24,000 nucleotides of DNA, taken from positions 775,160-799,159 of the forward strand of contig CAXWPJ010000002.1 in assembly GCA_963664115.2 (NCBI GenBank), in the 5' to 3' direction. Below the pieces are notes generated by a model, which had not been told where the DNA came from, did no database searches, and saw nothing but the letters and a program-made list of their open reading frames with translations. The DNA comes from Terriglobia bacterium (GTDB taxonomy: Bacteria > Acidobacteriota > Terriglobia > 20CM-2-55-15). Numbering within the stretch: the first letter of the stretch is position 1; every line of letters starts with the position of its first letter. The translations under genes were made by a program, and so were the position numbers. Positions 8,705-24,000 of this stretch are shown here, piece by piece.

Positions 8705-9712
8705 ATGATTATTGATTGTCACGGACACTACACAACGGCGCCGGATGCGCTGGGAGAATATCGAAAGCAGCAGATTGCCGCGTTTGATTCATCCCAACCT
8801 GCGGCAAAAGGCGAGATAAACATTTCCGACGATCAACTCCGCGAGAGCGTCGAGGGTGCGCAACTGAAGTTTCAGCGCGAACGCGGTACCGACATGACGA
8901 TATTTTCTCCGCGCGCGTCGTGGATGGCCCATCACCTGGGCGATGCGATGGTGAGCCAGTACTGGAGTGAACACTGCAATGATTTAATCCATCGCCTCTG
9001 TGGGCTGTATCCGAAAAACTTTGTCGGCGTTTGCCAGTTGCCGCAGTCTCCGGGTGTCGGACCGGCGAACTGCATCGGCGAGCTTGAACGGTGTGTCAAC
9101 GAACTGGGAATGATCGGGTGCAATTTAAGTCCCGATCCCTCCGGCGGCCGTTGGACGGCGCCCCCGCTGAGCGATCCATACTGGTATCCGGTCTACGAAA
9201 AGATGGTCGAGTTGGATGTGCCCGCGATGGTTCATGTCAGTGCTTCCTGCAATCCTGCTTTTCATACGACGGGTGCGCACTACCTCAACGCCGACACGAC
9301 GGCCTTCATGCAGTTTCTGACCTCGGATCTATTCAAGGACTTTCCGGCTCTGAGATTCGTCATACCCCATGGTGGGGGTGCTGTGCCGTATCATTGGGGT
9401 CGGTATCGTGGCATGGCTCAGGACCAGAAGCGTCCGCCGCTGACGGAGCTTATGGGTGGCAACATCTTCTTCGACACCTGTGTCTACCACATGCCGGGAA
9501 TCGAGTTGCTTACAAAAGTCGTACCCACCGACAACATCCTCTTCGGTTCAGAGATGGTCGGCGCCGTTCGGGGTGTCGATCCGGAAACGGGGCACTACTA
9601 CGACGATACGAAACGGTACATCGACCAAGCTTCGTGGCTGAGCGATGAAGAGAAGCAAAAAATATTCGAAGGGAACGCACGCAAGGTGTATCCCCGCATC
9701 AACCGGAAATAG
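8705..9712 (+). CDS. ligJ: 4-oxalomesaconate hydratase-like amidohydrolase
   Basis: GAGGAG lies 5 nt upstream of ATG 8705. MIIDCHGHYT..., MVELDVPAMVHVSASCNPAFHTTGAHYLNADTTAFMQ, LRFVIPHGGGAVPYHWGRYRG, FFDTCVYH.PGIELL and NILFGSEMVGAVRGVDPETGHYYDDTKRYID match my memory of Sphingobium LigJ almost block for block. Confidence 0.8.
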   Translation: MIIDCHGHYTTAPDALGEYRKQQIAAFDSSQPAAKGEINISDDQLRESVEGAQLKFQRERGTDMTIFSPRASWMAHHLGDAMVSQYWSEHCNDLIHRLCGLYPKNFVGVCQLPQSPGVGPANCIGELERCVNELGMIGCNLSPDPSGGRWTAPPLSDPYWYPVYEKMVELDVPAMVHVSASCNPAFHTTGAHYLNADTTAFMQFLTSDLFKDFPALRFVIPHGGGAVPYHWGRYRGMAQDQKRPPLTELMGGNIFFDTCVYHMPGIELLTKVVPTDNILFGSEMVGAVRGVDPETGHYYDDTKRYIDQASWLSDEEKQKIFEGNARKVYPRINRK

Positions 9713-9743
9713 GGGACGGACACTTCATGAAGTGTCCGTCCCC
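9712..9743. repeat. Perfect 32-nt palindrome GGGGACGGACACTTCA|TGAAGTGTCCGTCCCC; copy 1 of a palindromic repeat family
   Basis: Read directly. It starts at the last base of the ligJ-like TAG stop. It shares a 21-nt core, CATGAAGTGTCCGTCCCCTTC, with 18248-18268. It could act as a transcription terminator or attenuator between ligJ and the peptidase gene. Confidence 0.85.
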
Positions 9744-10700
9744 TTCCTGTTCGCGGTTCTGACGATCTCTTTACAGGGTTCGGCGCTAGGCCTCGTTCAG
9801 GACGCCCCCCGTGATCCCGGCTTCGGCGCCCTAGCGCGTGAACATATCGGTGAGCTGTCTGACCGAATCGGTGCGCGTGTCGCTGGAAGCCCGGGTGAAG
9901 TGCGGGCCGCCGGATATATCGAAAATGTTTTCTCCCAAATTGGCTACCCGACCCGCGTCCAACCCTTCAGCTTTTCCGGTGGGCCCCGGGACCGCCGGTC
10001 TACACGGGAATCGGCGAATGTTATTGCTGTGAAGGCAGGATCGTCGAACGAGGAAATCATTGTTGGCGCGCACTATGATTCCGAAGTTCGCGGCCGGGGA
10101 GCGGGGGACAATGCGTCGGGAGTAGGCGTGATGCTCGAAATCGCCGCCGCGATTCGGGACGTCGCGACGCCGTACACGATTCGGTTCATCGCTTTCGGTG
10201 CCGAAGAAGAGGGTCTGGCAGGATCGCGCTATACGGTGAGTGAGATCCCCCCTGAGGACATCGGGCGTGTGGTGGCCATGATCAATCTGGACAGCCTGAT
10301 TGCAGGAGACTTCGCTTACGTCTACGGGGATCGAGGAGACAGAGGTGTGGTTCGTGACTGGGTTCTGGCCCGAGCCAGGGAACAGGGTCTTGATCTGCGG
10401 ACACAACCGGGTGAGAACCCTGAATATCCGAGGGGAACGACAGGAGAGTTTTCCGATCACGCTCCTTTCGAGGACGTGGGCATCCAGTATGCGTATTTTG
10501 AATCGACCAACTGGTCACTGGGAGAGCGAGACGGATACGTCCAGGTTGACCCTCAACTCGGAGAAAACGGTTACATCTGGCATACACCGTTCGATACGAT
10601 GGGCTATATCGAGTCGACGTTTCCTGGAAGGATTGATGCGCGTCTCCACTTGTTTGCGACGATGCTCTACCAGGTATTGACAGAATTTTCCGCCCCTTAG
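9732..10700 (+). CDS. M28-family metallo-aminopeptidase, secreted
   Basis: M28 metal-ligand blocks are present: GAHYDS, GAGDNASGVGVMLEIA, FIAFGAEEEGLAGS, MINLDS, SDHAPF. The start is uncertain. GTG 9732 gives (M)SVPFLFAVLTISLQGSALG as a signal peptide. The track ATG 9645 would overlap the conserved ligJ 3' end by 68 nt. Confidence 0.75.
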   Translation: MSVPFLFAVLTISLQGSALGLVQDAPRDPGFGALAREHIGELSDRIGARVAGSPGEVRAAGYIENVFSQIGYPTRVQPFSFSGGPRDRRSTRESANVIAVKAGSSNEEIIVGAHYDSEVRGRGAGDNASGVGVMLEIAAAIRDVATPYTIRFIAFGAEEEGLAGSRYTVSEIPPEDIGRVVAMINLDSLIAGDFAYVYGDRGDRGVVRDWVLARAREQGLDLRTQPGENPEYPRGTTGEFSDHAPFEDVGIQYAYFESTNWSLGERDGYVQVDPQLGENGYIWHTPFDTMGYIESTFPGRIDARLHLFATMLYQVLTEFSAP

Positions 10701-11252: not shown

Positions 11253-11957
11253 ATGAAGAACGTTTCGCTCCTGGCCGTGACATTGGCCGTAATGGTCGTA
11301 CTCGGTGTGTGGGTCAACTCAGTGGAAGCTGGAGAACGCCGCACGGTCACGCTGAGCTATGGCGGGGGAGAGAATCTGTCCCTCACGGTTGTCCTGCCTC
11401 TGGGCTATACGCCGGACACCGAGTATCCGCTTGTCTTTGCCTTGCCGCCCGGACCGGGCACCCCGGAGATGGTCAACGCGTTTCTGGGCAACTACTGGCT
11501 CGATGAGGCGGATCGTAGGGGATATATTCTGGTTTCACCTGCCATATTTGGACCGAACCTTGAAGGCTCGGCCGCTGAGGTTGTCGACACGGTGTTCGAC
11601 TGGGTCGGAGAGAATCTCAGTTACGATGCCGCGCGCGTCACGCTGGCGGGTCAGTCCAACGGAGGACTTGGCGCGTTCCATCTAGCTCGTGCCGACCCGG
11701 ATCGTTTTGGATCGATAGTGGTCATGCCGGGCGGTTATGGATCGGCCGGCGATCTGGCTCAACTCGGTGGAAAGCCGGTCTTGTTGGCCGTTGGGGAGCG
11801 CGACACGCAGTGGGTCACGTTGACGAACCGCACGCGCGACCTTCTTGTGCTGGCCGGCGCCGCTCCGCGGGTCGATGTCATACCGGGTGCAGGCCATGTT
11901 TTCCCGTATCCTGTCGATACTCTGTTTGACTGGATCGAGCAGGCACACCCCGAGTAG
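11253..11957 (+). CDS. Secreted alpha/beta-hydrolase (esterase / predicted peptidase type)
   Basis: Signal peptide MKNVSLLAVTLAVMVVLGVWVNSVEA. Nucleophile elbow GQSNGG. C-terminal GAGHVF histidine block. Confidence 0.8.
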   Translation: MKNVSLLAVTLAVMVVLGVWVNSVEAGERRTVTLSYGGGENLSLTVVLPLGYTPDTEYPLVFALPPGPGTPEMVNAFLGNYWLDEADRRGYILVSPAIFGPNLEGSAAEVVDTVFDWVGENLSYDAARVTLAGQSNGGLGAFHLARADPDRFGSIVVMPGGYGSAGDLAQLGGKPVLLAVGERDTQWVTLTNRTRDLLVLAGAAPRVDVIPGAGHVFPYPVDTLFDWIEQAHPE

Positions 11958-12019
11958 CGGTGAACTGGGGCTGCGGACATTGCTTGGCATGGGCTCACCG
12001 AACCAACAGTTGAACGCAC

Positions 12020-12724
12020 ATGAACCTTGATAAAGCGACGGTCCTGGTCACGGGCGGAACGAGCGGCATCGGACGGGCCATAGCGGAGTCCTTGATAACT
12101 GCGGGCGCAAGCGTTGCGGTTACGGGTCGGGATTCCGCCCGGCTTGAGGAGACGGCCGGGGCATTGAGTGCTCTCCCGATTCAGGCGGACGTTGCGAATG
12201 AATCCGACGTGCAGCGGACCTACGAGCAAGTCTTCGATGCCTTCGGTCACCTGGACATACTGATCAACAACGCCGGTCACGGACTCTTCAAGCCCCTGGT
12301 GGACACCGATCGCACCGAGTTCGACCGAATCCTTCAGACGAATGTGACGGGAGCGATGTTGATGGGACGCGAGGCAGCCCGGCATTTTGTTTCCCGGGGG
12401 GGCGGCAACATCGTCAATATTGCCTCGACGGGTGCGGTGCGCGGTGGACCCAACGGCACAGCCTACTACGCGAGCAAATTTGCCCTTCGGGGAATGACCG
12501 AATGCTGGCGGGCCGAACTCCGGCCCCACAATGTGCGGGTGTTCCTCATCAATCCCAGTGAGGTCATCACAAGTTTCGCCGCGACGGCCGGTTTCCCTCA
12601 GGATGACAATCCAACCAAGCTGCACGCGGAAGACATCGCCCACATGGTAAAAGGCGTTCTGGAAATGGACGATCGCGGCTTCACGACCGAGTTGACGATC
12701 TTTGCGACGAATCCTAAGGACTAG
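12020..12724 (+). CDS. Short-chain dehydrogenase/reductase (classical SDR)
   Basis: Carries TGGTSGIGRAIA, NNAG and YYASK motifs. Length is 234 aa. Confidence 0.9.
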   Translation: MNLDKATVLVTGGTSGIGRAIAESLITAGASVAVTGRDSARLEETAGALSALPIQADVANESDVQRTYEQVFDAFGHLDILINNAGHGLFKPLVDTDRTEFDRILQTNVTGAMLMGREAARHFVSRGGGNIVNIASTGAVRGGPNGTAYYASKFALRGMTECWRAELRPHNVRVFLINPSEVITSFAATAGFPQDDNPTKLHAEDIAHMVKGVLEMDDRGFTTELTIFATNPKD

Positions 12725-12760: not shown

Positions 12761-12831
12761 TCGCTCGGTCGTTCAAACGGCCATCCTGGCCGAACGACCG
12801 GCGACCCTTGCCATCATCCTGATGGCAAGGG
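12761..12831 (-). repeat. 71-nt double-hairpin element, copy A (possible structured RNA or REP-like element)
   Basis: The minus strand reads CCCTTGCCATC-AGGAT-GATGGCAAGGG then TCGCCGGTCGTTC-GGCC-AGGAT-GGCC-GTTT-GAACGACCGAGCGA. The same architecture occurs at 23145..23215 (+), with compensatory stem changes. It lies in the convergent gap 160 nt downstream of the methyltransferase stop, on the same strand. Confidence 0.7.
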
Positions 12832-12871
12832 TTATTGGGATCGGCCGAACGATTAAGCATTCCCCAATACG

Positions 12872-12896
12872 ACCCGCAGCGTTCCTCGCTGCGGGT
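12872..12896 (-). other. 10-bp hairpin with AGGAA loop in the operon 3' region
   Basis: The minus strand reads ACCCGCAGCG-AGGAA-CGCTGCGGGT. It lies between the methyltransferase stop and element copy A. Confidence 0.4.
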
Positions 12897-12991: not shown

Positions 12992-13804
12992 CTAGCCAAT
13001 CCGTGTAGCCGTTATCAGCGCATATCCCAGTTGACCTGCGTTGATGGCTTCAAGTGCCGCCTTGGCCATGTGTTTTGCGCTCGTGAAGTCCACGCCGTCC
13101 AGGTCGATCTTCTTGAGTCCGACTGCGATTTCCAGGCCCAGCAACTTCCCGCGAATCTGGTTGACCATTTGCGTGAGTGCATCGTCGTGAGCTGTGACCG
13201 AATCCATCCTGAAACCGGCCGCTTGAAGCATCTCCGTGTAGCCATCGACGGGTCGGGCGTCGGCGATACATGCCACCCACGCCATCAGGGAATCCAGAGC
13301 TTCAGGCAACGTGTCGCTGCGAGTGATGTCGCTGAGGCCGAGGCGGCTTCCTCTCCGCAGGACACGATGGAACTGGGCCCCCGCCTTCGCTTTGTCCGGG
13401 AAGGTACAAAAGGCACATTCGCAGATGATCGCGTCGAATGATGCGTCTTCAAAAGGTAAAAGCTCGGAATCGCCCTGTTGGAATTGGACACGTCCACTGA
13501 GACCGCGTGCGGCGGCTTCCTCGTTTGCCATACGGACGTTGTCCGCTCCGTAATCCACACCCACGACTTCGCAATCAAAGGTTTCGGCAACATGAAGGGC
13601 ACTCGTGCCGGTACCGGAGGCCACGTCCAGAACTCTCAGACCAGGTTCGAGATTCAGTGCCTGTCCGAGTTCAGTGGTCAAGGCCAGTCCGCCCGGATGA
13701 AACGAGTCGCCCAGAAGCAGCCGAACAAAATCCTGTTCGTAAAGTTGCGCGCAGCAGGATTTGAGGTCTTGTCTGGCTGTGGGAAGATCCATCGATTCCT
13801 TCAT
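12992..13804 (-). CDS. Class I SAM-dependent methyltransferase, ArsM-like core
   Basis: SAM motif I is VLDVASGTG. ICECAFCTFPDK aligns with ArsM ISNCVINLSPDK, LGLSDI with LAISDV, and WVACIADA with the ArsM GC.AGA block. There is an N-terminal SCC pair. Its ATG overlaps the radical SAM stop as ATGA (13801-13804). Confidence 0.8.
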   Translation of the reverse strand: MKESMDLPTARQDLKSCCAQLYEQDFVRLLLGDSFHPGGLALTTELGQALNLEPGLRVLDVASGTGTSALHVAETFDCEVVGVDYGADNVRMANEEAAARGLSGRVQFQQGDSELLPFEDASFDAIICECAFCTFPDKAKAGAQFHRVLRRGSRLGLSDITRSDTLPEALDSLMAWVACIADARPVDGYTEMLQAAGFRMDSVTAHDDALTQMVNQIRGKLLGLEIAVGLKKIDLDGVDFTSAKHMAKAALEAINAGQLGYALITATRIG

Positions 13805-15309
13805 GAGTCACCCTTATTGAACGAGAAAGTAACCGGCTGTGGTTCGTATGGGGTGCCTTCTTTGCGAGCCTTGCGTCGTGCGGGTTCCATGCCGTCAAGC
13901 TGCGAACGGGCCTGTTCACGATAGCCCACTGTGTTGTATGCGCAGAACGGGATTTGTTTGCCACCGGGCAGGAGGAATTCCTTACAGCATTTCATCAGGT
14001 TCTTCTGATTGAACGTCCACGGATCCATGAAATCCTGCAACATGATCATGAGCACGTGTTCGGCTATATCGTCCACCGCGATCGATTCCGGAATGCCGCA
14101 GGCCTGACACGAGGCTAAGATCTGTCCGGAGGACTTATCGGAACCGGGAACTGAGGACGAGGACCACAAGCCTTCCAGAGCTTGTGTCACATCCTGGTTC
14201 CAGTCCGGCAGTGCGCGATTGGTGATGTAGTCCAGATAGTCGTCCACGTTGACGACGCGGGGTATGGGAGTCACGGTGTCCCCGTCGATGAACGCGTACG
14301 TCACCGAGTTGCATGTCGGAAAACAGCACGGGACAGGCACGAAATCGCTGACCACGAATTGCTTCTTCGTCTGTTCCTCGATCAACCGCAGAACGTCGGG
14401 TATCGTCATGCGTTCCATGGGATCGTGTGCCATATGACGACCGGTGTGAAACGCCGGCTGGAAGTTGATGCCGCGGACGGCGGGGTGTTTGATCGCCAGG
14501 TCGATGATCTTTCCAAGCTCGTGATCGTTGACCGCACGCTCGATCGCAGGAACAAGCGTGACGCTCAGCCCTATTGCCGCAAGCCTGTCCAGCGCGCGGA
14601 GCTTCTGCTCGAGAATGTCGGGCTCGCCTCGAATGATTCGGTATGTTTCGCTGTCGAAACCGTCGAACTGAAAATAAATGGAAGGACGCGCCAGGTTGAG
14701 TTGTTCTAGAAACGCATCATCGGTGGCGATCCGTTTGCCGTTCGTATTGAGCATGACCATCGGAATACCACGGGCCTTGGCCGCGCCGATGAAATCGATA
14801 ATCTGCGGATGAATCGTCGGCTCCCCGCCGGAAAACTGGACGACTTCGGGGTCGCCCTCGGTACGAACAAAGTCGTCCAGCATTCCCTCAACCTCTTCCA
14901 GAGTGAGGCTGAAGCCGGGACCGGCTTCGGAGAAGCAGAGCGGGCAGCTCATATTGCAGGCGCTGTTTACTTCTATGATTCCGAGACATGCATGCTGCTG
15001 GTGATCCGGACACAGACCACAATCATGAGGGCATCCGTCCTGAATGTCCGTTCCGAAAGCCAAGGGAATAGTGCCGGGCTTGTTGTACTTGCTCTGGGCG
15101 ACATACATCTGGGCGTCGCCGTATACCAATCCCTCAAAGGGCCCACATTCCGGGCAGCGTTTGCGCATGTAGACCTTGTTGTTGCGCAACAGGATCTGGG
15201 CATCGATCACCTTGCGGCATTCCGGACAGATGCTGCGTGTGAGTTCGTAGAAGATGTAGTCGGCGTCTTTCTTCTTTGGTGTTTCGGAAGGCGAAACCTG
15301 TTTTGCCAT
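13801..15309 (-). CDS. Large radical SAM enzyme with N-terminal rubredoxin-like ribbon and extra Cys clusters (Tes/GDGT-MAS-like architecture)
   Basis: CPEC..(20)..CPEC ribbon, then CPHDCGLCPDHQQHAC, then the radical SAM motif CNMSCPLC with GGEP downstream. C-terminal Cys groups are PCCFPTC, CQAC and CC...C. ATG 15309 is preceded by GGAGGA. The track start, GTG 15333, would overlap the upstream stop as GTGA. Confidence 0.85.
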   Translation of the reverse strand: MAKQVSPSETPKKKDADYIFYELTRSICPECRKVIDAQILLRNNKVYMRKRCPECGPFEGLVYGDAQMYVAQSKYNKPGTIPLAFGTDIQDGCPHDCGLCPDHQQHACLGIIEVNSACNMSCPLCFSEAGPGFSLTLEEVEGMLDDFVRTEGDPEVVQFSGGEPTIHPQIIDFIGAAKARGIPMVMLNTNGKRIATDDAFLEQLNLARPSIYFQFDGFDSETYRIIRGEPDILEQKLRALDRLAAIGLSVTLVPAIERAVNDHELGKIIDLAIKHPAVRGINFQPAFHTGRHMAHDPMERMTIPDVLRLIEEQTKKQFVVSDFVPVPCCFPTCNSVTYAFIDGDTVTPIPRVVNVDDYLDYITNRALPDWNQDVTQALEGLWSSSSVPGSDKSSGQILASCQACGIPESIAVDDIAEHVLMIMLQDFMDPWTFNQKNLMKCCKEFLLPGGKQIPFCAYNTVGYREQARSQLDGMEPARRKARKEGTPYEPQPVTFSFNKGDS

Positions 15310-15329
15310 CGTTCCTCCAGCGGGCTGTA

Positions 15330-16736
15330 TCACCGCAACAGTTTTGAAATTCCCCGGATCACTTTTCCCTTAGTGCCGGTGAGTGTCTGTTCGACGGCGA
15401 CGTCCGCAGCGAGTTGCCCCACGGCAGTTGAATACGTTGGATAGGGGTGCATCGTAGCGGCCAAGTCTCTGAGGCGCAGCTTCCTCTCGATCGCAATGAC
15501 GAACTCCGTGATGACTTCGCCGGCCCGCCCCGCCACGATCGTTGCACCCAGAATGATGTCGTCGGCCCCTGTAACGACTTTGAGAAAACCTCGAATATCG
15601 TTTTCGCAGACGGCGCGATCGACATGGCTCATTCCCCGGCGGTGCACCCGGACCGCGTTGCCGAATTGATTTCGAGCTTCTCCCTCGCTCAAGCCAATAT
15701 GCGCTATCTCAGGATCCGTGTATGTGACCCATGGCACGATAGAGGTGAATCCGGAGCTGTGGCCGGGAAGCAGGGCATTGCGAACTGCCTGGAATCCCTG
15801 CCATGCCGCAAAGTGTGTGAACTGAACCCCACCCGTGACGTCGCCCGCCGCGTATATGTGTTTGACACTGGTGCGCAGTTGGTCGTCGACCTCGATGCCC
15901 TTCGGGGTGTGCCGGACGCCGGCTTTGTCCAGGCCGAGTGTCTCCAGGTTTGGGGCGCGGCCTGTGGCTACCAGTAGCAGTTCCGACCGGTTCTGGCCCG
16001 ACGGTGTATCTATGATCACGTAGCTACCGTCATGATAAACCCGGGTTGCCAGGCCTTCCAGAAATCGAATGCCCTCACCTCGGAGAACTTCCAGCATGAG
16101 CTCTCGCGCTTCAGGCTCTTCTCTCGGCAAGAGCGCGACGTCGATTATCGTGACCTGGGAACCCAGCCGCTGGTAGGCCTGGGCCAACTCGACGCCGATC
16201 GGTCCGGCGCCGATGATCGCCATGGTTTTGGGAAGGCGGTCGATGTCGAAGACCTGTTCGTATGTGATGAATGGGGTTTTCTCCAAGCCCGGAATAGGTG
16301 GCAGCATCGGACGGGCGCCGGTCGTGATCAGAAACGCTTTCGCCTTGAGGAGCCGGTCACCGGCCAGCAGAGTTTCCTCATCCACGAACTCGGCCGCGGC
16401 TTGAATGACTGCGACACCAGCCTCCTGGAACGTTTCGGGTGTCTCGTACTGGTAAACCTGACGGATGGCTGCGCTCACGTAGCGCTTCACCTGGCTCATA
16501 TCGACAGTTGGAGGGGACACGGTTATACCGTAATGTGACGCCGTGCGCGCCTCGTGCGCGACCTTGGCGGCTTTGAGCAGCGCTTTGCTCGGGACACAGC
16601 CCGTCCAGGTGCAGTCGCCTCCGATGCGGTCTTTTTCGACCAGAGCTGTTCTCGCTCCCAGCTTCGCGGCAAAATTCGCTGCCGTTATTCCGCCCGATCC
16701 CGCACCGACGATTACAAGGTCGAATGGTGATTCCAT
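15330..16736 (-). CDS. Class I pyridine nucleotide-disulfide oxidoreductase (flavoprotein disulfide reductase; not a canonical MerA)
   Basis: FAD fold VIVGAGSGG. Redox-active GGDCTWTGCVPSK. NAD(P) fold IIGAGPIGVE. GD motif YAAGDV. C-terminal dimerisation-domain HPYPTYS. ATG 16736 shares one base with the MFS TGA (TGATG). The track start is TTG 16739. Confidence 0.9.
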   Translation of the reverse strand: MESPFDLVIVGAGSGGITAANFAAKLGARTALVEKDRIGGDCTWTGCVPSKALLKAAKVAHEARTASHYGITVSPPTVDMSQVKRYVSAAIRQVYQYETPETFQEAGVAVIQAAAEFVDEETLLAGDRLLKAKAFLITTGARPMLPPIPGLEKTPFITYEQVFDIDRLPKTMAIIGAGPIGVELAQAYQRLGSQVTIIDVALLPREEPEARELMLEVLRGEGIRFLEGLATRVYHDGSYVIIDTPSGQNRSELLLVATGRAPNLETLGLDKAGVRHTPKGIEVDDQLRTSVKHIYAAGDVTGGVQFTHFAAWQGFQAVRNALLPGHSSGFTSIVPWVTYTDPEIAHIGLSEGEARNQFGNAVRVHRRGMSHVDRAVCENDIRGFLKVVTGADDIILGATIVAGRAGEVITEFVIAIERKLRLRDLAATMHPYPTYSTAVGQLAADVAVEQTLTGTKGKVIRGISKLLR

Positions 16737-18124
16737 CAAAGTGAGTCCCTCTCCGGAAGATTACGAATGGTTACCAGCGCCACTACGACCAGCGCCACGG
16801 TCCCGTGTATCAATCCGTCCACCCCGAACGCCGCTCCGAGAACACTTCCGATCAGAGCGCCCAGCAGCGCTCCGACACCAAGCAGTGCCGAATATATTCC
16901 CATCGTTGCCCCGCGACCGGCCGCACCCCCGACGATATCTGCAAGCAGGGCCAGAGCTCCCGGCGTGAACCCGCTCTCAACCATCACCGCCGCAGCCAGA
17001 AACACCAGTAGTCCCAGCCGTGGGGCGTTTCCCAACGCGGGAGTATGATTCAAGACATATAGCCCTGCACACACGACCAGTGTTGCCGTCAATCCGGCCA
17101 CGAGAACTGTTTTTCTATCGACGCGGTCGAGAAAGAAACTCCAGATCGTCACGCCGATCGCAAACACGAGGGCGTATCCAAGAAACACCCAGCCGACCTG
17201 TTCCGGGTTGTCCGCGAACAATCCGTTCAAATACTGCGTACTTTCCTGTCGCAGCGTGAGAAGGAAAGTGACCATCGGGCCCAACCAGAGACCCACGATC
17301 GCATTGATCGCGATCCATGCGGGTGCAAGCATCCTGATCGAGGGGTCTCCCAGTGCCCGTCTCAGTCCTTCGAACGCTTCGACCGTGCTCCGGGATTCGG
17401 CCGTTTCCGCGCCAAACCAGAAGGTGGCTGAACTCGCCAGATATATGCCGGCCATCGCGACAAATGCGCCCGTTCCCAAAAGCTGCCAGAGACCCGCACC
17501 GATCGGGGCTCCAAGGGCAAGGCCTGCCAGGAGAGTCAGTTCAAACAGAGCCATCACGCGGCCACGCATGTTAAGCCCGTCTTCGGTCAGGTCTGTCAGG
17601 TAGGCTAGGATAGCCGGTGAGCTGGCCGCCCATGCGCTTCCGTCGACGCTACGGGCAACGAAGAATGCTGGTACTGAGCGGGCCACTCCCAGCAGGCCCA
17701 TCCCGGCTGCACCAAGCAGGCCGCTTCCAATCATCAGGAAGCGGGGAGACAGACGGTCTGCAAGAATCCCCATCGGCAGTGCCCCGATCAGTTCCGCACC
17801 GTAGGCCACCGCACCGAGGAGGCCCACGATCGCCGCGTTCACGTCCTGACCTTGATTTCCGAGGTCGGCAAAGTAGAGTCCAACCAGAACGCCGCCGGCC
17901 CCGCCCGCGATTCGGACGAGCGCGTTTCCCGCGAGCACGACGGGCCAGCGCCGACTATCGTTTCGCAATGAATGTGTTTCCACGTCGTTAAGAGAGGGTG
18001 CCCGAAGATTCACCAACCCTCGTGCGAGAGTTTCACCCGGCCTGCCCATGCTACTGCTTCGTGCGTTCCGGAATCCAAATTTCGGGTTAAGGAAATTCGA
18101 AATCGCCGCAGACTGGGGGGACAC
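16736..18124 (-). CDS. MFS-type transporter (about 12 TM)
   Basis: Repeated hydrophobic spans. A D-R-x-x-R-like loop (GILADRLSPRF) follows TM2. It is the first gene of the operon. The start is uncertain: GTG 18124 or ATG 18049, neither with a strong Shine-Dalgarno sequence. Confidence 0.8.
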   Translation of the reverse strand: MSPQSAAISNFLNPKFGFRNARSSSMGRPGETLARGLVNLRAPSLNDVETHSLRNDSRRWPVVLAGNALVRIAGGAGGVLVGLYFADLGNQGQDVNAAIVGLLGAVAYGAELIGALPMGILADRLSPRFLMIGSGLLGAAGMGLLGVARSVPAFFVARSVDGSAWAASSPAILAYLTDLTEDGLNMRGRVMALFELTLLAGLALGAPIGAGLWQLLGTGAFVAMAGIYLASSATFWFGAETAESRSTVEAFEGLRRALGDPSIRMLAPAWIAINAIVGLWLGPMVTFLLTLRQESTQYLNGLFADNPEQVGWVFLGYALVFAIGVTIWSFFLDRVDRKTVLVAGLTATLVVCAGLYVLNHTPALGNAPRLGLLVFLAAAVMVESGFTPGALALLADIVGGAAGRGATMGIYSALLGVGALLGALIGSVLGAAFGVDGLIHGTVALVVVALVTIRNLPERDSL

Positions 18125-18185: not shown

Positions 18186-18277
18186 GAAGGGGACGTGAAG
18201 GGAACGGCCACTTCAGCCGAAATATACTCGTCACGCCCCAATTTCGCATGAAGTGTCCGTCCCCTTCACGTCCCTTC
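18186..18277. repeat. Long imperfect inverted repeat (about 30-nt arms, about 33-nt spacer); copy 2 of the palindromic repeat family, probable terminator of the barrel gene
   Basis: The left arm is GAAGGGGACGTGAAGGGAACGGCCACTTCA (18186-18215). The right arm is TGAAGTGTCCGTCCCCTTCACGTCCCTTC (18249-18277). GCCGAAAT/ATTTCGC extends the pairing inward. The right arm abuts the TGA of the 18276..20786 gene and contains the 21-nt core shared with 9726-9746. Confidence 0.8.
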
Positions 18278-20786: not shown

Positions 20787-21015
20787 CGAAGGCGTGCAGA
20801 ATCAAAGACTTCATCGATTCTAACGAGATGACAGGGTTTTGTCTAAGCCCGAGTCGGTCCCGCTTGACCCGGAACCGGCAAAACCTCTTGACGCTCCAAG
20901 CCCCGAAGATGATCATGGGCACACAGCTTCTTGGCGAAGTTGTTTACTGATGATTCGGGCAAGGATTCGGATTGCCTCTCGCACCTTATGCTCAGGGTGC
21001 GGGTTTGGAGAGCTT

Positions 21016-22029
21016 ATGAAATCGAGAACAGTGCTTGTTGGGGTATCGTGTCTTGTCGGGGCCGCGCTCGTTCTGGCCCAGGCCCAGGCACAGGAAGTGC
21101 GACCGGGCGAAAGGGAATGGCTTGTCCGGGCGATTGCTGGCGTTGTCGCTTCCGGAGCCGAGTGGACGCTGGCCTGGGACGGCTATGACAATGCGGACGG
21201 AATTGTCGGTGCCCCCGACGGCAGCCTTCTGTTTGCTCAGGAACAGCCCAGCCGAGTGCGCAGGCTCGCGCCCGACGACAGCACCTCGGTTTACATGGAG
21301 GGCACCGGTCACGCCGGATCCATCGCCATTGATTCCGAGGGCCGTCTGCTTGCTGTACAGCGGGGTTGCACGGACCCGGGGCGACCTGCCGAAATTGAAT
21401 GCAGCGTAGCGCCGAAACTCAGTGTCCTGGCTCCGGATTACGAGGTCCGGGTGGACAGGTTTTCAAACGGCGACGCGTTTGGCCGGCTCAACGACCTGGT
21501 TGTCGATCGCAGGGGCGGCGCGTACTTCACGGTCGGAGGCGCCTACTACGCCAGTCCGGACGGCGAAGTGATCACGGTTGCTGCGGCCGGTGATATCCGT
21601 TCAAACGGGATTACGCTCAGCCGGGACGAACGAACCTTGTACGTGACCAACCGCGAGGTCGTCGTCGCTTTCGATGTGCAGCCGGATGGGTCGGTGCGCA
21701 ACCGCCGTGATTTCGGCACACTCGATGGAGATGGCGGCGGTGACGGGATGACCATCGATGCCGAAGGCCGGGTCTACGTAACCGGAAACCTGGGTGTCCA
21801 TGTGCTGAGCCCGGAGGGAGAGCATCTCGGAATGATTCCGACGCCGCGCCGTCCCATAACCGTTGCCTTCGCCGGACCCGAGAAGAAGACCCTTTATATT
21901 GTAGGTAGCGGGGCCGTTGACGTCTTCAGAGAACGGAATTTTGAAACCCCTGAGGGTGTTCGCAATAATTCGAAGACCATATACAAGATTCCCATGCTGG
22001 CCGAAGGATTCCAGGGGCGGGCAAAGTAG
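21016..22029 (+). CDS. Secreted SMP-30/gluconolactonase/LRE-like beta-propeller protein, paralog 1
   Basis: ATG 21016 (MKSRTVLVGVSCLVGAALVLAQAQA) has GGAG upstream. Motifs NGITLS.DE.TLYVT, DGM.ID.EGR.YV and AFAGP.KKTLY are typical of this fold. The track ORF from 20839 adds an implausible leader. Confidence 0.8.
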   Translation: MKSRTVLVGVSCLVGAALVLAQAQAQEVRPGEREWLVRAIAGVVASGAEWTLAWDGYDNADGIVGAPDGSLLFAQEQPSRVRRLAPDDSTSVYMEGTGHAGSIAIDSEGRLLAVQRGCTDPGRPAEIECSVAPKLSVLAPDYEVRVDRFSNGDAFGRLNDLVVDRRGGAYFTVGGAYYASPDGEVITVAAAGDIRSNGITLSRDERTLYVTNREVVVAFDVQPDGSVRNRRDFGTLDGDGGGDGMTIDAEGRVYVTGNLGVHVLSPEGEHLGMIPTPRRPITVAFAGPEKKTLYIVGSGAVDVFRERNFETPEGVRNNSKTIYKIPMLAEGFQGRAK

Positions 22030-22138
22030 AGGTCTCATCTGGGATTCTCGACGATGCCGCTGATGCAGATGACGTCTGCATGTGTTCTTGGCATTCATAT
22101 CGCTGGTTTTTCCCCGCGCGCGCGGGATTGGAGAAATT

Positions 22139-23083
22139 ATGAAATCGAAGACTGTATTCACGATTATCGGATGTGTTCTGGGGTCGACCCTGATGTTTAG
22201 CTCGGTGACTGCGGCACAGGGGCCGCAGGCGGAGACGCCGGTCACGACTCGGAGCATCCCGGGGGTCGTCGCTGCCGGTGTGAGGGTCGAACATGTCTGG
22301 AAAGGATTGCAGGCAGCGGATGGTCTCATCAGCGAACCGGACGGAACGCTCCTGCTGCCCGAGCAGCGAGCGGATAGGATCGGCAGGTTCAACGCGGACG
22401 GAACAGTCACGCCCTACCTGGAAGACACGAACGAAGCCGGTGGACTCGCGTTCGACGCGATGGGCCGCCTCATTTCTGTAGAGAGAAGAATGCCCCAGGT
22501 GAGGGTCCTGGTTCCCGAACGCAGAGTCCTGGCGGACAGCTACGAAGGTGAGCCGCTCGGGCGGCTGAGCGATATCATCGCAGACCAGAAAGGGGGTGTG
22601 TATATCACCGAGGGCCGCAACGCCTCGGTCTACTACCTCAACGCAGGCGGCAGACTCAACCGCGTCGCCGACGACATCGACGGCGCAAACGGCATCACGC
22701 TGAGTCCGGATGAGAGCACCCTCTACGTGACCAATCGAGAGGCCGGCATCCTGGCCTACGATGTTGCCCCGGACGGGGGTATCGGAAACCGCCGCCCCTT
22801 CGTGCAGCCGGAAGGCGGACAGGACGGCCTGGCAGTCGACGGCACGGGACGGCTCTATGTCGCCGGCCAGGCTGGCGTTCAGGTCTTCAGCCCCCAGGGA
22901 CAGTTCCTGGGACTCATTCCCATACCCCGGCCTACGACGACTCTGGCCTTTGCCGGACCGGACAAGAAGACGCTCTACGTCATCGGCCGCGGCAACGATC
23001 TTCCAGGCGGTGACAGCGGCGATGCAAGGTCGATGTACAGGATCTCAATGCTTGCGGAGGGTTTCAAAGGCCGCGCCAAGTAA
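22139..23083 (+). CDS. Secreted SMP-30/gluconolactonase/LRE-like beta-propeller protein, paralog 2
   Basis: ATG 22139 (MKSKTVFTIIGCVLGSTLMFSSVTAAQG). The start region GCGGGATTGGAGAAATTATGAAATCGAAGAC is nearly identical to that of paralog 1 (GCGGGTTTGGAGAGCTTATGAAATCGAGAAC). It shares the C-terminus MLAEGF.GRAK. Confidence 0.8.
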   Translation: MKSKTVFTIIGCVLGSTLMFSSVTAAQGPQAETPVTTRSIPGVVAAGVRVEHVWKGLQAADGLISEPDGTLLLPEQRADRIGRFNADGTVTPYLEDTNEAGGLAFDAMGRLISVERRMPQVRVLVPERRVLADSYEGEPLGRLSDIIADQKGGVYITEGRNASVYYLNAGGRLNRVADDIDGANGITLSPDESTLYVTNREAGILAYDVAPDGGIGNRRPFVQPEGGQDGLAVDGTGRLYVAGQAGVQVFSPQGQFLGLIPIPRPTTTLAFAGPDKKTLYVIGRGNDLPGGDSGDARSMYRISMLAEGFKGRAK

Positions 23084-23144
23084 CGTAAGTCGTGCACGGT
23101 TTGAAACCGAGCGTGGGGCTGGAACAGGTCGATATACCGAAGAG

Positions 23145-23215
23145 GCCTCACAATCAGGATGATCGTGAGGCTCGCCGGTCGTTCCGACAGGATGTCCGAT
23201 TGAACGACCGAGCGA
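23145..23215 (+). repeat. 71-nt double-hairpin element, copy B
   Basis: The plus strand reads GCCTCACAATC-AGGAT-GATCGTGAGGC then TCGCCGGTCGTTC-CGAC-AGGAT-GTCC-GATT-GAACGACCGAGCGA, followed by AAAAAA. It lies 61 nt downstream of the paralog-2 stop on the same strand, in a convergent gap. Confidence 0.7.
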
Positions 23216-23286
23216 AAAAAGCCCCCCGGCCCGGAGACTGAAGTTCAAAGTTATGCACTGCGGGCAGGGTCGAAGCCGCGTCCGTT

Positions 23287-24000
23287 CTATTTCGACCGAC
23301 CCGGGTAGCCTCGGGCCACCATGGGAATCTTGTAGATCGTTTTGCCGTTGTTCCGGAAACCCTCCACAAGCTCATAATCTCTGCCATTAGGAGCCAGTGC
23401 TCCCCTGCCAACCACGTAGAGTGTCATCTTTTCGGGTCCCGCGAATGCAGCGTTGACGACGCCGCGCGGCGTGGGAATGGTGCCGAGGTATCCACCTTCG
23501 GGGCTGAATACGCGAACGCCGTTATTCCCGGTGACATAGAGACGGCCTTCGTTGTCGACCGCCATGGCGTTGCCGTTCCCGTCGGGGAGCGTCGCGAATT
23601 CCCGCCCGTTGCCGACCGTTCCGTCGGCCTGGATGTCGAAAGCGTGGACCAGGGAGCCGCTGCCTATATAGAGGGTTGTTTCATCCGGACTCAGCATGAT
23701 TCCGCTGGCGCGGATCGTGTCGCTGATTCGGATCGTCCGACCGCCGGGCTTGATGTAATAAGCCAGGCCGTCGGTGAAATAAACTGTATCGTTCCTGTCG
23801 ACGACGGCTTCGCTCGGCCGTGTGAGTGGGGTTCCCTCGTAGTTATCGGCGATGACCCGGCGTTCGTTTTCGGGATAAACGATGCCGATCTTTGTGGGCA
23901 CGTTGCAGGGCAGATTGCCCCTGCCGGAATCCGTGCAGGTTTTCTGCGCGGCCACGAGGCGGCCTTTGTAGTCGATCGTGACGGCACCGGCACCTTCCGT
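23287..24000 (-). CDS. SMP-30/gluconolactonase/LRE-like protein, paralog 3 (N-terminus beyond the right edge)
   Basis: The frame stays open upstream of the track start: 23956-24000 translates as TEGAGAVTIDYKGRLV, which matches paralog 1 (GHAGSIAIDSEGRLL). The C-terminus is ...TIYKIPMVARGYPGRSK. Confidence 0.75.
   Translation of the reverse strand, partial: TEGAGAVTIDYKGRLVAAQKTCTDSGRGNLPCNVPTKIGIVYPENERRVIADNYEGTPLTRPSEAVVDRNDTVYFTDGLAYYIKPGGRTIRISDTIRASGIMLSPDETTLYIGSGSLVHAFDIQADGTVGNGREFATLPDGNGNAMAVDNEGRLYVTGNNGVRVFSPEGGYLGTIPTPRGVVNAAFAGPEKMTLYVVGRGALAPNGRDYELVEGFRNNGKTIYKIPMVARGYPGRSK

Follow-up and report, generated by a model that had tools for sequence, protein, structure and literature searches.

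A widespread acidobacterial gene quartet pairing a tetraether-synthase-like radical SAM enzyme with a thiol-bearing methyltransferase, and its possible role in the modification of lipid tails

A stretch of 24,000 nucleotides from the genome of a Terriglobia bacterium (assembly GCA_963664115.2, contig CAXWPJ010000002.1, positions 775,160 to 799,159; the whole stretch is called the window below) contains four adjacent genes on its minus strand. They encode a transporter of the major facilitator superfamily (MFS), a flavoprotein disulfide reductase, an enzyme of the radical SAM (S-adenosylmethionine) class and a methyltransferase (Table 1). A first-pass annotation, which was made from the sequence alone, had described the four genes as a tightly coupled operon and as a candidate for a new system. 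Direct reading verified all of the gene junctions that it had listed. The MFS stop codon and the ATG of the reductase gene have one base in common (TGATG), exactly 20 nt, among them the motif GGAGGA, separate the reductase TGA (15332-15330) from the ATG of the radical SAM gene (15309), and the TGA of the latter overlaps the ATG of the methyltransferase gene (ATGA). The labels given to the four genes agreed with the Pfam domain calls. The start of the MFS gene is ambiguous and could be GTG 18124, ATG 18049 or GTG 17983.

Table 1. Features of the quartet locus, the flanking hairpins and the alternative neighbour of the radical SAM gene in other genomes. Positions are those of the window unless a locus is named.
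Feature	Position	Strand	Description
MFS transporter	16736-18124	minus	462 aa from GTG 18124; Pfam MFS_1
Class I FAD/NAD(P)H disulfide reductase	15330-16736	minus	468 aa; Pyr_redox_2 + Pyr_redox_dim
GGAGGA ribosome-binding site	15313-15318	minus	direct reading; in the 20 nt that precede the ATG of the radical SAM gene
Tes/TrsS-superfamily radical SAM enzyme	13801-15309	minus	502 aa; Radical_SAM + Zn_ribbon_HMPTM
Class I SAM methyltransferase	12992-13804	minus	270 aa; Methyltransf_31; DVU_1556-like/ArsM-like
Long imperfect hairpin between the upstream outer membrane protein gene and the MFS gene	18186-18277	minus	-57.7 kcal/mol, z -7.2
Four consecutive hairpins between the methyltransferase stop codon and the convergent short-chain dehydrogenase/reductase gene	12762-12896	minus	-80.6 kcal/mol, z -8.4
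VKOR-family thiol oxidoreductase in other genomes	loci L058, L063, L075, L080, L024, L059, L061		157-aa stand-alone protein with CxxC

The radical SAM enzyme had been proposed to have the architecture of a tetraether synthase, and this was borne out at the level of the fold. The only close solved structure was that of GDGT-MAS (7tol, E = 4e-79). An AlphaFold2 model (predicted local distance difference test score of 87.9, with low confidence for residues 355-415) matched the structure 7TOM with a TM-score of 0.79-0.80 over 493 columns at 31% identity, while the next match had a TM-score of 0.36. The four metal sites of Tes/GDGT-MAS (MJ0619, MA_1486) are retained, namely the rubredoxin-like site near the N-terminus (Cys4 in the window enzyme), the [4Fe-4S] site of the N-terminal part, where a His is also conserved, the CX3CX2C motif of the radical SAM cluster, and the C-terminal [4Fe-4S] cluster with its conserved residues C333, C441 and C456. 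Profile comparison placed the enzyme outside the Tes family. The NCBIfam model for Tes (NF045702) gave 328.1 bits versus a cut-off of 450, and the match was split into two stretches, the better of which comprised residues 32-340. Two control sequences (P0212 and P0213) passed the same cut-off with 481 and 518 bits. The model for TrsS (NF045646) matched in one full-length stretch, but with 317.8 bits it also remained below its cut-off of 490. Models for ArsL or ArsS were absent among the 25 best NCBIfam matches.

Among 80 orthologs the metal-ligand cysteines were nearly 100% conserved, 19 cysteines were near-invariant, and the mean identity to the consensus was 84%. The identity of the radical SAM enzyme was 74-94%, compared with about 65% for its three partners from the same genomes. 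The superfamily was then compared using 86 full-length representatives. P0212 and P0213, which score above the Tes cut-off, do not have the residues C108, C328 and C442, which form a co-varying trio in most bacterial relatives, and these relatives fail both the Tes and the TrsS cut-off. The family of the window enzyme adds C329, C401 and C404, so that six cysteines that are absent from Tes/GDGT-MAS are invariant in it, and the fourth ligand of its rubredoxin-like site is Cys instead of His. A further difference concerns the position of Met439, the labile ligand of the catalytic C-terminal cluster of Tes. This position is occupied by Gln in 17 of 18 members of the window family, by Met in three of four Tes sequences and in TrsS proper, and by His in 26 of 38 bacterial relatives. 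GDGT-MAS abstracts a hydrogen from the terminal carbon of its lipid and stores this carbon as a C-S(cluster) intermediate (PMC9433317). The window enzyme thus uses the Tes scaffold, but the site of this intermediate is remodelled by the exchange of Met439 for Gln together with the additional invariant cysteines. Judged by these comparisons, the enzyme should be regarded as neither a Tes nor a TrsS.

The methyltransferase had been called ArsM-like. Its best NCBIfam family was DVU_1556 (NF045667; 130.9 bits, cut-off 155), and the second to fifth best families were all of the ArsM type and all below their cut-offs. The scores for the ArsM models PRK11873 (103.4 versus 263 bits), NF040538, which represents the arsinothricin ArsM (32.5 versus 500), and NF038099 (37.6 versus 400) were far too low for an assignment. 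In 76 orthologs the residues C17, C18, C78, C128, C130, C133 and C179 were each conserved to at least 96% (C130 and C179 to 97%), and the motifs CC (the N-terminal residues 17 and 18), FHPGG, CECAFC and ACIADA stood out. C130 and C179 aligned with the cysteines of the sequences SNCVINL and ECLAGA in the Chlamydomonas ArsM (5evj), which we take to be the two As(III)-binding residues (C174 and C224 in CmArsM). The invariant His of FHPGG presumably occupies the position of the Cys in the GCG motif of ArsM, as judged from the motif context in a region that no alignment covers. The AlphaFold2 model (score 85.1) was structurally nearer to RebM/AtmM, TleD, MitM, PEAMT and a GPP C-methyltransferase than to ArsM, which did not appear among the top 50 structural neighbours. 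A homolog search yielded close orthologs only. The class I fold and the two aligned cysteines are features in common with ArsM, to which the N-terminal cysteines may add. The label ArsM-like is thus apt where the active-site thiols are concerned, whereas the protein does not belong to the ArsM family.

The product of the second gene was correctly predicted to be a flavoprotein reductase with a CxxxxC motif. It comprises a Pyr_redox_2 domain (E = 4.8e-57) and a dimerisation domain, and contains the motif GGDCTWTGC. The residues C43 and C48 (GGDCTWTGCVPSK) were 100% conserved in 55 orthologs and were the only conserved cysteines; the motif HPYPT with the C-terminal His was also conserved. The nearest solved structures were MerA cores (E = 1e-75). 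An assignment to MerA was not supported by the profile (TIGR02053, 361.5 bits versus 454), and the best NCBIfam match (NF004991, 434 bits versus 620), RclA (226 versus 740), the HOSCN reductase (227 versus 650), glutathione reductase and lipoamide dehydrogenase were likewise below their cut-offs. The protein shares the FAD/NAD(P)H disulfide oxidoreductase fold and the redox-active CxxxxC with MerA, RclA and the HOSCN reductase. In contrast to MerA, it has neither a C-terminal Cys pair (it contains three cysteines in all and ends with GISKLLR) nor an HMA/NmerA domain detectable with Pfam, it has His in HPYPT where MerA (4k8d) has Phe in FPYLT, and its gene is translationally coupled to an MFS gene, which sets it apart from MerA-like flavoproteins. 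By sequence it is best classified as a class I pyridine nucleotide-disulfide oxidoreductase with a MerA-like core. The MFS protein was recognized by MFS_1 with 119.8 bits (gathering threshold 33.4, E = 1.6e-34). Its matches to named MFS subfamilies, none of them at the cut-off, and to YajR (3wdo) were weak, so that no close characterized relative emerged. ESGFTP is among its conserved motifs, and one of its Cys residues is invariant.

When one genome per species was scanned, 316 genomes proved to contain a relative. The best 80 of these were nearly all from Acidobacteriota, i.e., from Terriglobia (including Acidobacteriaceae and Bryobacterales), Blastocatellia and Vicinamibacterales, with a few bins of Eremiobacterota, Rhodanobacteraceae and Xanthobacteraceae. 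The closest relative was a metagenome-assembled genome (MAG) of a Terriglobia bacterium, with a radical SAM enzyme that was 94% identical, and MAGs of Bryobacteraceae also carry the quartet. Soil metagenomes contain the family in great abundance; its database clusters number over 7000, and the top matches have identities of 75-94%.

For the analysis of synteny, open reading frames were called and clustered in 82 neighbourhoods. The methyltransferase gene was found directly downstream of the radical SAM gene in every locus whose contig continues. In the 63 loci with at least 5 kb of upstream sequence, the reductase gene was nearby in 53 and both the reductase and the MFS gene were present in 43, while the reductase gene was absent within 8 kb in about 10 loci and the MFS gene in about 16. 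The genes flanking the quartet were entirely different between genomes. The four genes are therefore syntenic across many genomes against unrelated flanks, as the first-pass annotation had suggested to check, and this supports a functional unit. However, the arrangement is not fixed. The MFS-reductase pair keeps its internal order, and the one-base overlap was also present in the two relatives with inspected gene calls, but the pair is co-linear with the other two genes as in the window in about 20 loci, divergent in about 21-25, permuted in one (L013), and separated by inserted genes in Blastocatellia. Thus, the tight coupling proposed for the window is real, but the quartet consists of two modules, MFS-reductase and radical SAM-methyltransferase, which recombine in at least three arrangements, and is not one obligate four-gene operon.

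A gene for a VKOR-family thiol oxidoreductase was located directly upstream of the radical SAM gene only in loci without reductase and MFS genes (four of four, plus three short loci; Table 1). Our own hypergeometric estimate for this exclusivity is p ~3.5e-4. The VKOR loci are closely related, and as few as one or two evolutionary events may underlie the pattern. Also recurrent in the neighbourhoods are genes for an extracytoplasmic function (ECF) sigma factor, a PiT/PHO4 transporter (13 loci), a HAD hydrolase, an AhpD-like protein, a peroxiredoxin, MbnB/DUF692 together with DUF2063, and DUF6789. Genes for ArsR, ArsC, Acr3, MerR or other ars, mer or metal-resistance functions did not recur among the 82 neighbourhoods.

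The pairing of radical SAM enzyme and methyltransferase extends far beyond the window family. Relatives of the radical SAM enzyme with 36-44% identity (P0139, P0123, P0125) have a methyltransferase gene directly downstream as well, and these distant partners, themselves 36-41% identical to the window methyltransferase, keep the N-terminal Cys, HPGG, the Glu-C130 pair and C179. DVU_1556 was their best or second-best family, the partner in locus L090 reaching 151.9 bits. In one protein (P0222) a DVU_1556 methyltransferase (252 bits) and a TrsS (698 bits) are naturally fused, and the Cys signature is kept in this fusion as well. No methyltransferase accompanies the representative that passes the Tes cut-off. 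The presence of the methyltransferase in every locus and next to the distant relatives, the fusion, and its absence beside that Tes representative indicate that it is an integral partner that sets these enzymes apart from Tes, and the pairing is ancient. A second apparent fusion (P0238), in which the methyltransferase part lacks the first 80 residues, is probably an artefact. The idea that small open reading frames upstream of distant radical SAM genes encode a third partner common to these loci, or a precursor peptide, was rejected, as they are mutually unrelated.

True TrsS sequences scored 635-698 bits with NF045646. Four of the sequences (P0222, P0223, P0227, P0251) are fusions of TrsS with the DVU_1556 methyltransferase, with the DVU_1551 MocA-like NTP transferase (in some cases together with an HD domain), or with a DUF5714/MbdU-like metal-binding domain, and they outline the otherwise unpublished TrsS system. 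Like the window pair, the pair of TrsS and DVU_1556 (NF045646, NF045667) combines a Tes-related radical SAM enzyme with a Cys-bearing class I methyltransferase, and the methyltransferases of the two pairs belong to the same branch. Several differences separate the two. The window enzyme is only 31-34% identical to TrsS proper, TrsS has retained Met as the residue of the labile-ligand position and is variable at residues 328 and 442, where the window family has Gln and invariant Cys, respectively, and the partners of TrsS are the MocA-like NTP transferase and the MbdU-like domain instead of an MFS transporter and a disulfide reductase. The NTP transferase and metal-binding partners of the DVU_1551-1557 set were found neither in the window nor among the recurrent neighbours. 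In contrast to the (seleno)protein TrsS, the window enzyme contains no selenocysteine; an analysis of short representatives for truncation at the selenocysteine position of TrsS gave no clear signal. A literature search for DVU_1553-1557 retrieved nothing, and the one mention of TrsS that was found is an entry in a table (PMC13188914).

Lipid or acyl-chain contexts were seen for other branches of the superfamily. Two representatives (P0148 and P0181) lie inside clusters resembling type II fatty acid synthases, sometimes as tandem copies, and another one (P0167) is a natural fusion of a domain of the Lgt family (diacylglyceryl transferase) with a Tes-like radical SAM enzyme. In the nearest outgroup (P0121, 55% identity; L086:2385-5513) an Lgt gene is located two genes upstream, and a methyltransferase gene is absent. 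The contexts of the superfamily thus point two ways, i.e., to lipids and acyl chains and to metals and cofactors.

On this basis, we favour, with a probability of roughly 40%, that the quartet encodes a lipid-tail-modifying two-component enzyme, built from a Tes-type radical SAM enzyme and a thiol-bearing methyltransferase, which needs thiol/disulfide turnover. By analogy to the archaeal tetraether synthase, the radical SAM enzyme would cleave SAM and attack a hydrophobic alkyl chain, most likely the tail of a membrane lipid, by removing a hydrogen from one of its unactivated carbons, and a new bond would be formed at its C-terminal [4Fe-4S] cluster. Because the enzyme is always paired with a methyltransferase bearing ArsM-type thiols, the transfer of a methyl group to or via a soft atom, i.e., sulfur or possibly a metalloid, would be an integral step. 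The MFS transporter and the NAD(P)H-dependent disulfide reductase would provide transport and keep a dithiol/disulfide couple reduced, and in a few genomes the VKOR thiol oxidoreductase would take the place of this module. The reductase is paired with the MFS transporter by overlapping codons, and for this reason it may act on or with the transported solute or a thiol couple and not be a mere electron donor. The most likely product would be a modified lipid, membrane-spanning or methyl-branched, of the type of branched GDGTs (glycerol dialkyl glycerol tetraethers; brGDGTs), made by a chemistry other than plain Tes coupling. Substrate, reaction and the roles of the thiols, the reductase and the transporter are all inferred.

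Two groups of observations speak for this reading. A lipid as substrate is suggested by the full-length GDGT-MAS fold of the predicted structure and the four retained metallocofactor sites, by the branches in fatty-acid-synthase-like clusters together with the Lgt fusion and the Lgt neighbour, and by the distribution of the family over Terriglobia, Bryobacterales, Blastocatellia and Vicinamibacterales, i.e., over those groups of Acidobacteriota in which iso-diabolic acid and brGDGT lipids are known to occur (PMC13159169). The two-component and thiol-dependent nature is suggested by the pairing with the methyltransferase, the Cys signature, the frequent presence of the reductase and its substitution by VKOR. 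The transporter is not an argument against a role in lipid modification, because MFS genes are present in 56% of the neighbourhoods of archaeal GDGT-methylating radical SAM genes (10.1101/2025.10.20.683597).

Several points weigh against the favoured reading. Genes for lipid synthesis never recurred in the 82 neighbourhoods, and a crude comparison of hydrophobicity at a putative second lipid pocket revealed no difference between Tes and the window family. To our knowledge, a saturated carbon is not methylated by a class I methyltransferase alone. TrsS, the only named relative with the same methyltransferase partnership, has non-lipid fusions, namely to the MocA-like NTP transferase and to the metal-binding domain. 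The reductase travels with the MFS gene and not with the radical SAM-methyltransferase pair, and so an action on a transported solute would fit. Lastly, bacterial Tes homologs are without any experimental evidence (PMC11868695), and they were present in just three of 14 acidobacteria producing iso-diabolic acid (PMC13159169).

The main rival, somewhat unlikely but deserving to be weighed seriously, is the first hypothesis of the first-pass annotation, in which the locus handles a small molecule centred on a metalloid or thiol instead. The methyltransferase and the radical SAM enzyme would build or detoxify an organic arsenic, selenium or sulfur compound or a thiol- or metal-binding cofactor, the reductase would reduce an oxidised form of it (a disulfide or an oxyanion), and the MFS protein would export or import it. 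The ArsM-type families behind DVU_1556 and the position of C130 and C179 on the ArsM active-site cysteines fit such a system, as do the MerA cores as nearest solved relatives of the reductase, the MFS and reductase genes that are translationally coupled and move as a pair, and the fusion partners of TrsS proper, a MocA-like NTP transferase and a metal-binding domain of the MbdU type. Among the recurrent neighbours, VKOR, the AhpD-like protein, the peroxiredoxin, the ECF sigma factor, the copper-related MbnB/DUF2063 and the PiT transporter are in accord with it. PiT transporters carry phosphate and oxyanions of the arsenate type. The opposing evidence is the consistent absence of recurring metal-resistance genes, the failure of the methyltransferase at all ArsM cut-offs and the absence of ArsM from its structural neighbourhood, the lack of an NmerA domain and of a Cys pair at the C-terminus in the reductase, and the radical SAM enzyme itself, which has the full-length fold of a lipid-binding enzyme and is unlike ArsL or ArsS. 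Moreover, its conservation of 74-94% across classes would be unusual for a resistance gene. The parallel to the arsQML arsinothricin cluster that had been drawn from the sequence is affected by the same evidence. A formal analogy remains, as methyltransferase, radical SAM enzyme and permease correspond to arsM, arsL and arsQ, but arsQML lies inside an ars operon (PMC8552651), whereas the window locus is outside any ars context and has a Tes-like radical SAM enzyme.

It is unlikely, in our view, that the enzyme is simply a bacterial tetraether synthase. It would then couple two iso-C15 tails on its own, and its neighbours would be unrelated tailoring or housekeeping genes, or the reductase would be only an NAD(P)H-driven donor to the rubredoxin domain. 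Rubredoxin reductases belong to the same flavoprotein superfamily as the window reductase, and the Tes fold and metal sites are retained; the great abundance of the family in soil metagenomes matches the occurrence of brGDGTs in soils. This function has been proposed for acidobacterial Tes homologs (Zeng et al., 2022; Halamka et al., 2022). Against it stand the score below the Tes equivalog cut-off, which is passed by representatives without the extra cysteines, and the altered C-terminal cluster, with Gln in place of Met439 and the added residues C328, C329, C401, C404 and C442. In addition, the methyltransferase is present in every locus of the window family, can be fused to TrsS and is absent from the locus of the representative passing the Tes cut-off, and the reductase keeps its invariant redox-active disulfide and pairs with the MFS transporter instead of the radical SAM enzyme. 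The window family also differs from Tes in being bacterial and mostly from aerobic soil Acidobacteriota. Acid_5929 of S. usitatus could not be placed in the family; a search with a Bryobacteraceae ortholog gave no named Solibacter match, and all members of the clusters were derived from MAGs.

That the genes have independent functions and are adjacent only by shared ancestry in one lineage is highly improbable and largely refuted by the synteny data, since, although reductase and MFS genes are missing from about 10 and about 16 of the 63 loci and Blastocatellia have insertions between the modules, the four genes persist while their flanks differ completely, the modules stay together through at least three rearrangements and across bins of Acidobacteriota, Eremiobacterota and Proteobacteria, start and stop codons overlap, and a natural methyltransferase-radical SAM fusion exists.

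The lipid-tail-modifying two-component enzyme can be given a more specific form, which is decidedly speculative and has to be regarded as doubtful. The pair might be a cobalamin-independent two-component enzyme of a new kind, which would modify an unactivated carbon of a lipid tail with a methyl group or with a heteroatom (S, Se or As) in methylated form, with a methyltransferase thiol as carrier and with recycling of the disulfide by the reductase. If this were true and the substrate were a brGDGT precursor, the coupling and/or the number of methyl branches behind the MBT/CBT palaeothermometer would be determined by this locus instead of by a plain Tes homolog. If the heteroatom were arsenic, the locus would provide a route to omega-arsenolipids, for which no genetic pathway was found in the literature.

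The brGDGTs are among the most widely used proxies for terrestrial palaeotemperature and pH. For their synthesis and methylation there are only candidate enzymes, among which the acidobacterial Tes homologs lead. Bacterial Tes homologs, including acidobacterial ones, have been proposed as brGDGT synthases (PMC8941075, PMC10087280), and this activity is unconfirmed (PMC11868695, PMC13459092). The finding that an abundant acidobacterial family is not a Tes equivalog, has a remodelled catalytic cluster, is tied to a Cys-rich methyltransferase and is usually linked to a disulfide reductase and an MFS transporter changes which genes belong together in functional tests, warns against inferring a capacity for brGDGT synthesis from a BLAST match to Tes alone, and redirects the open question of how brGDGTs are built and methylated to a defined and testable gene set. 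It also defines a widespread pairing, from TrsS to Acidobacteria, of a Tes-like radical SAM enzyme with a thiol-bearing methyltransferase.

The view that the quartet belongs to no characterised pathway holds in part. A literature search revealed no paper that describes the quartet or the methyltransferase, reductase and MFS neighbours of Tes homologs, but the radical SAM enzyme has already been flagged as a Tes homolog, and the sister pair of TrsS and DVU_1556 is represented in NCBIfam. The parts themselves belong to known superfamilies. Not found in the literature are the obligate pairing with a methyltransferase of the DVU_1556/ArsM type, the modular link to an MFS transporter and a disulfide reductase, and the remodelling of the catalytic cluster.

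The names assigned to orthologs by the JGI pipeline are a separate observation. Methyltransferase orthologs (P0281, P0283, P0293 and others) are called arsenite methyltransferase or UbiE, and radical SAM orthologs are called HMPT dimethyltransferase or tetraether lipid synthase. Since these automatically named orthologs miss the curated NCBIfam cut-offs, the counts of arsM and Tes in soil surveys may be inflated.

The structured repeats that had been noted at both ends of the quartet are real, and their folding energies were far beyond those of shuffled controls (z values in Table 1), but they are not part of the system. The upstream hairpin has 34-nt arms that are 88% complementary. Its core is the 16-mer GGGACGGACACTTCAT (18248-18263), which also forms a perfect palindrome at 9711-9744, and in the relative with 94% identity (L001) the sole copy of this core lies about 3 kb downstream of the operon. 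As the core recurs elsewhere and is not kept beside the operon, the flanking hairpins are not operon-specific. The scan of the window revealed no Rfam family, so the hairpins are not a known riboswitch or RNA, and a promoter and terminator scan called no T-tract terminators at the downstream hairpins. The upstream hairpin is probably a repetitive extragenic palindromic (REP)-like element or a terminator outside the system, the 16-mer at its two sites looks like a dispersed REP-like element of the genome, and the downstream hairpins are likely a bidirectional terminator or insulator.

The window genes around the quartet are unrelated to it and encode an outer membrane protein (OMP) beta-barrel, lactonase paralogs of the SMP-30/gluconolactonase/LRE-like (SGL) type, a short-chain dehydrogenase/reductase (SDR), an esterase, peptidases and a TRAP-type transporter. 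Three adjacent SGL paralogs (20839-23955) lie upstream of the OMP gene, and SGL paralogs likewise flank the operon in the relatives L001 and L006. Open reading frames of 150-300 aa that are antisense to real genes, e.g., 11759-12643 on the minus strand over the SDR gene, are artefacts of the high GC content. In a complete genome of 4.9 Mb (L002) a gene for a CusF-peroxiredoxin fusion (L002:4374-5096) is located just upstream of the quartet in divergent orientation, and an AhpC-TSA_2 gene just downstream. Two MAGs contain two contigs each with a complete reductase-MFS and radical SAM-methyltransferase set (L082/L083 and L046/L053), which represents either a true duplication or strain heterogeneity of the bin.

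Three loci of more distant relatives (L093:3348-15425, L094:2930-14161, L092:2927-12937) contain one to three tandem genes for Tes-like radical SAM enzymes within clusters resembling type II fatty acid or polyketide synthases. These clusters also hold genes for an acyl carrier protein, a ketoreductase, FabA/ApeI-like dehydratases, pairs of ketosynthases, a nitroreductase and GH3, and they appear to encode an undescribed pathway for the radical modification of acyl chains.

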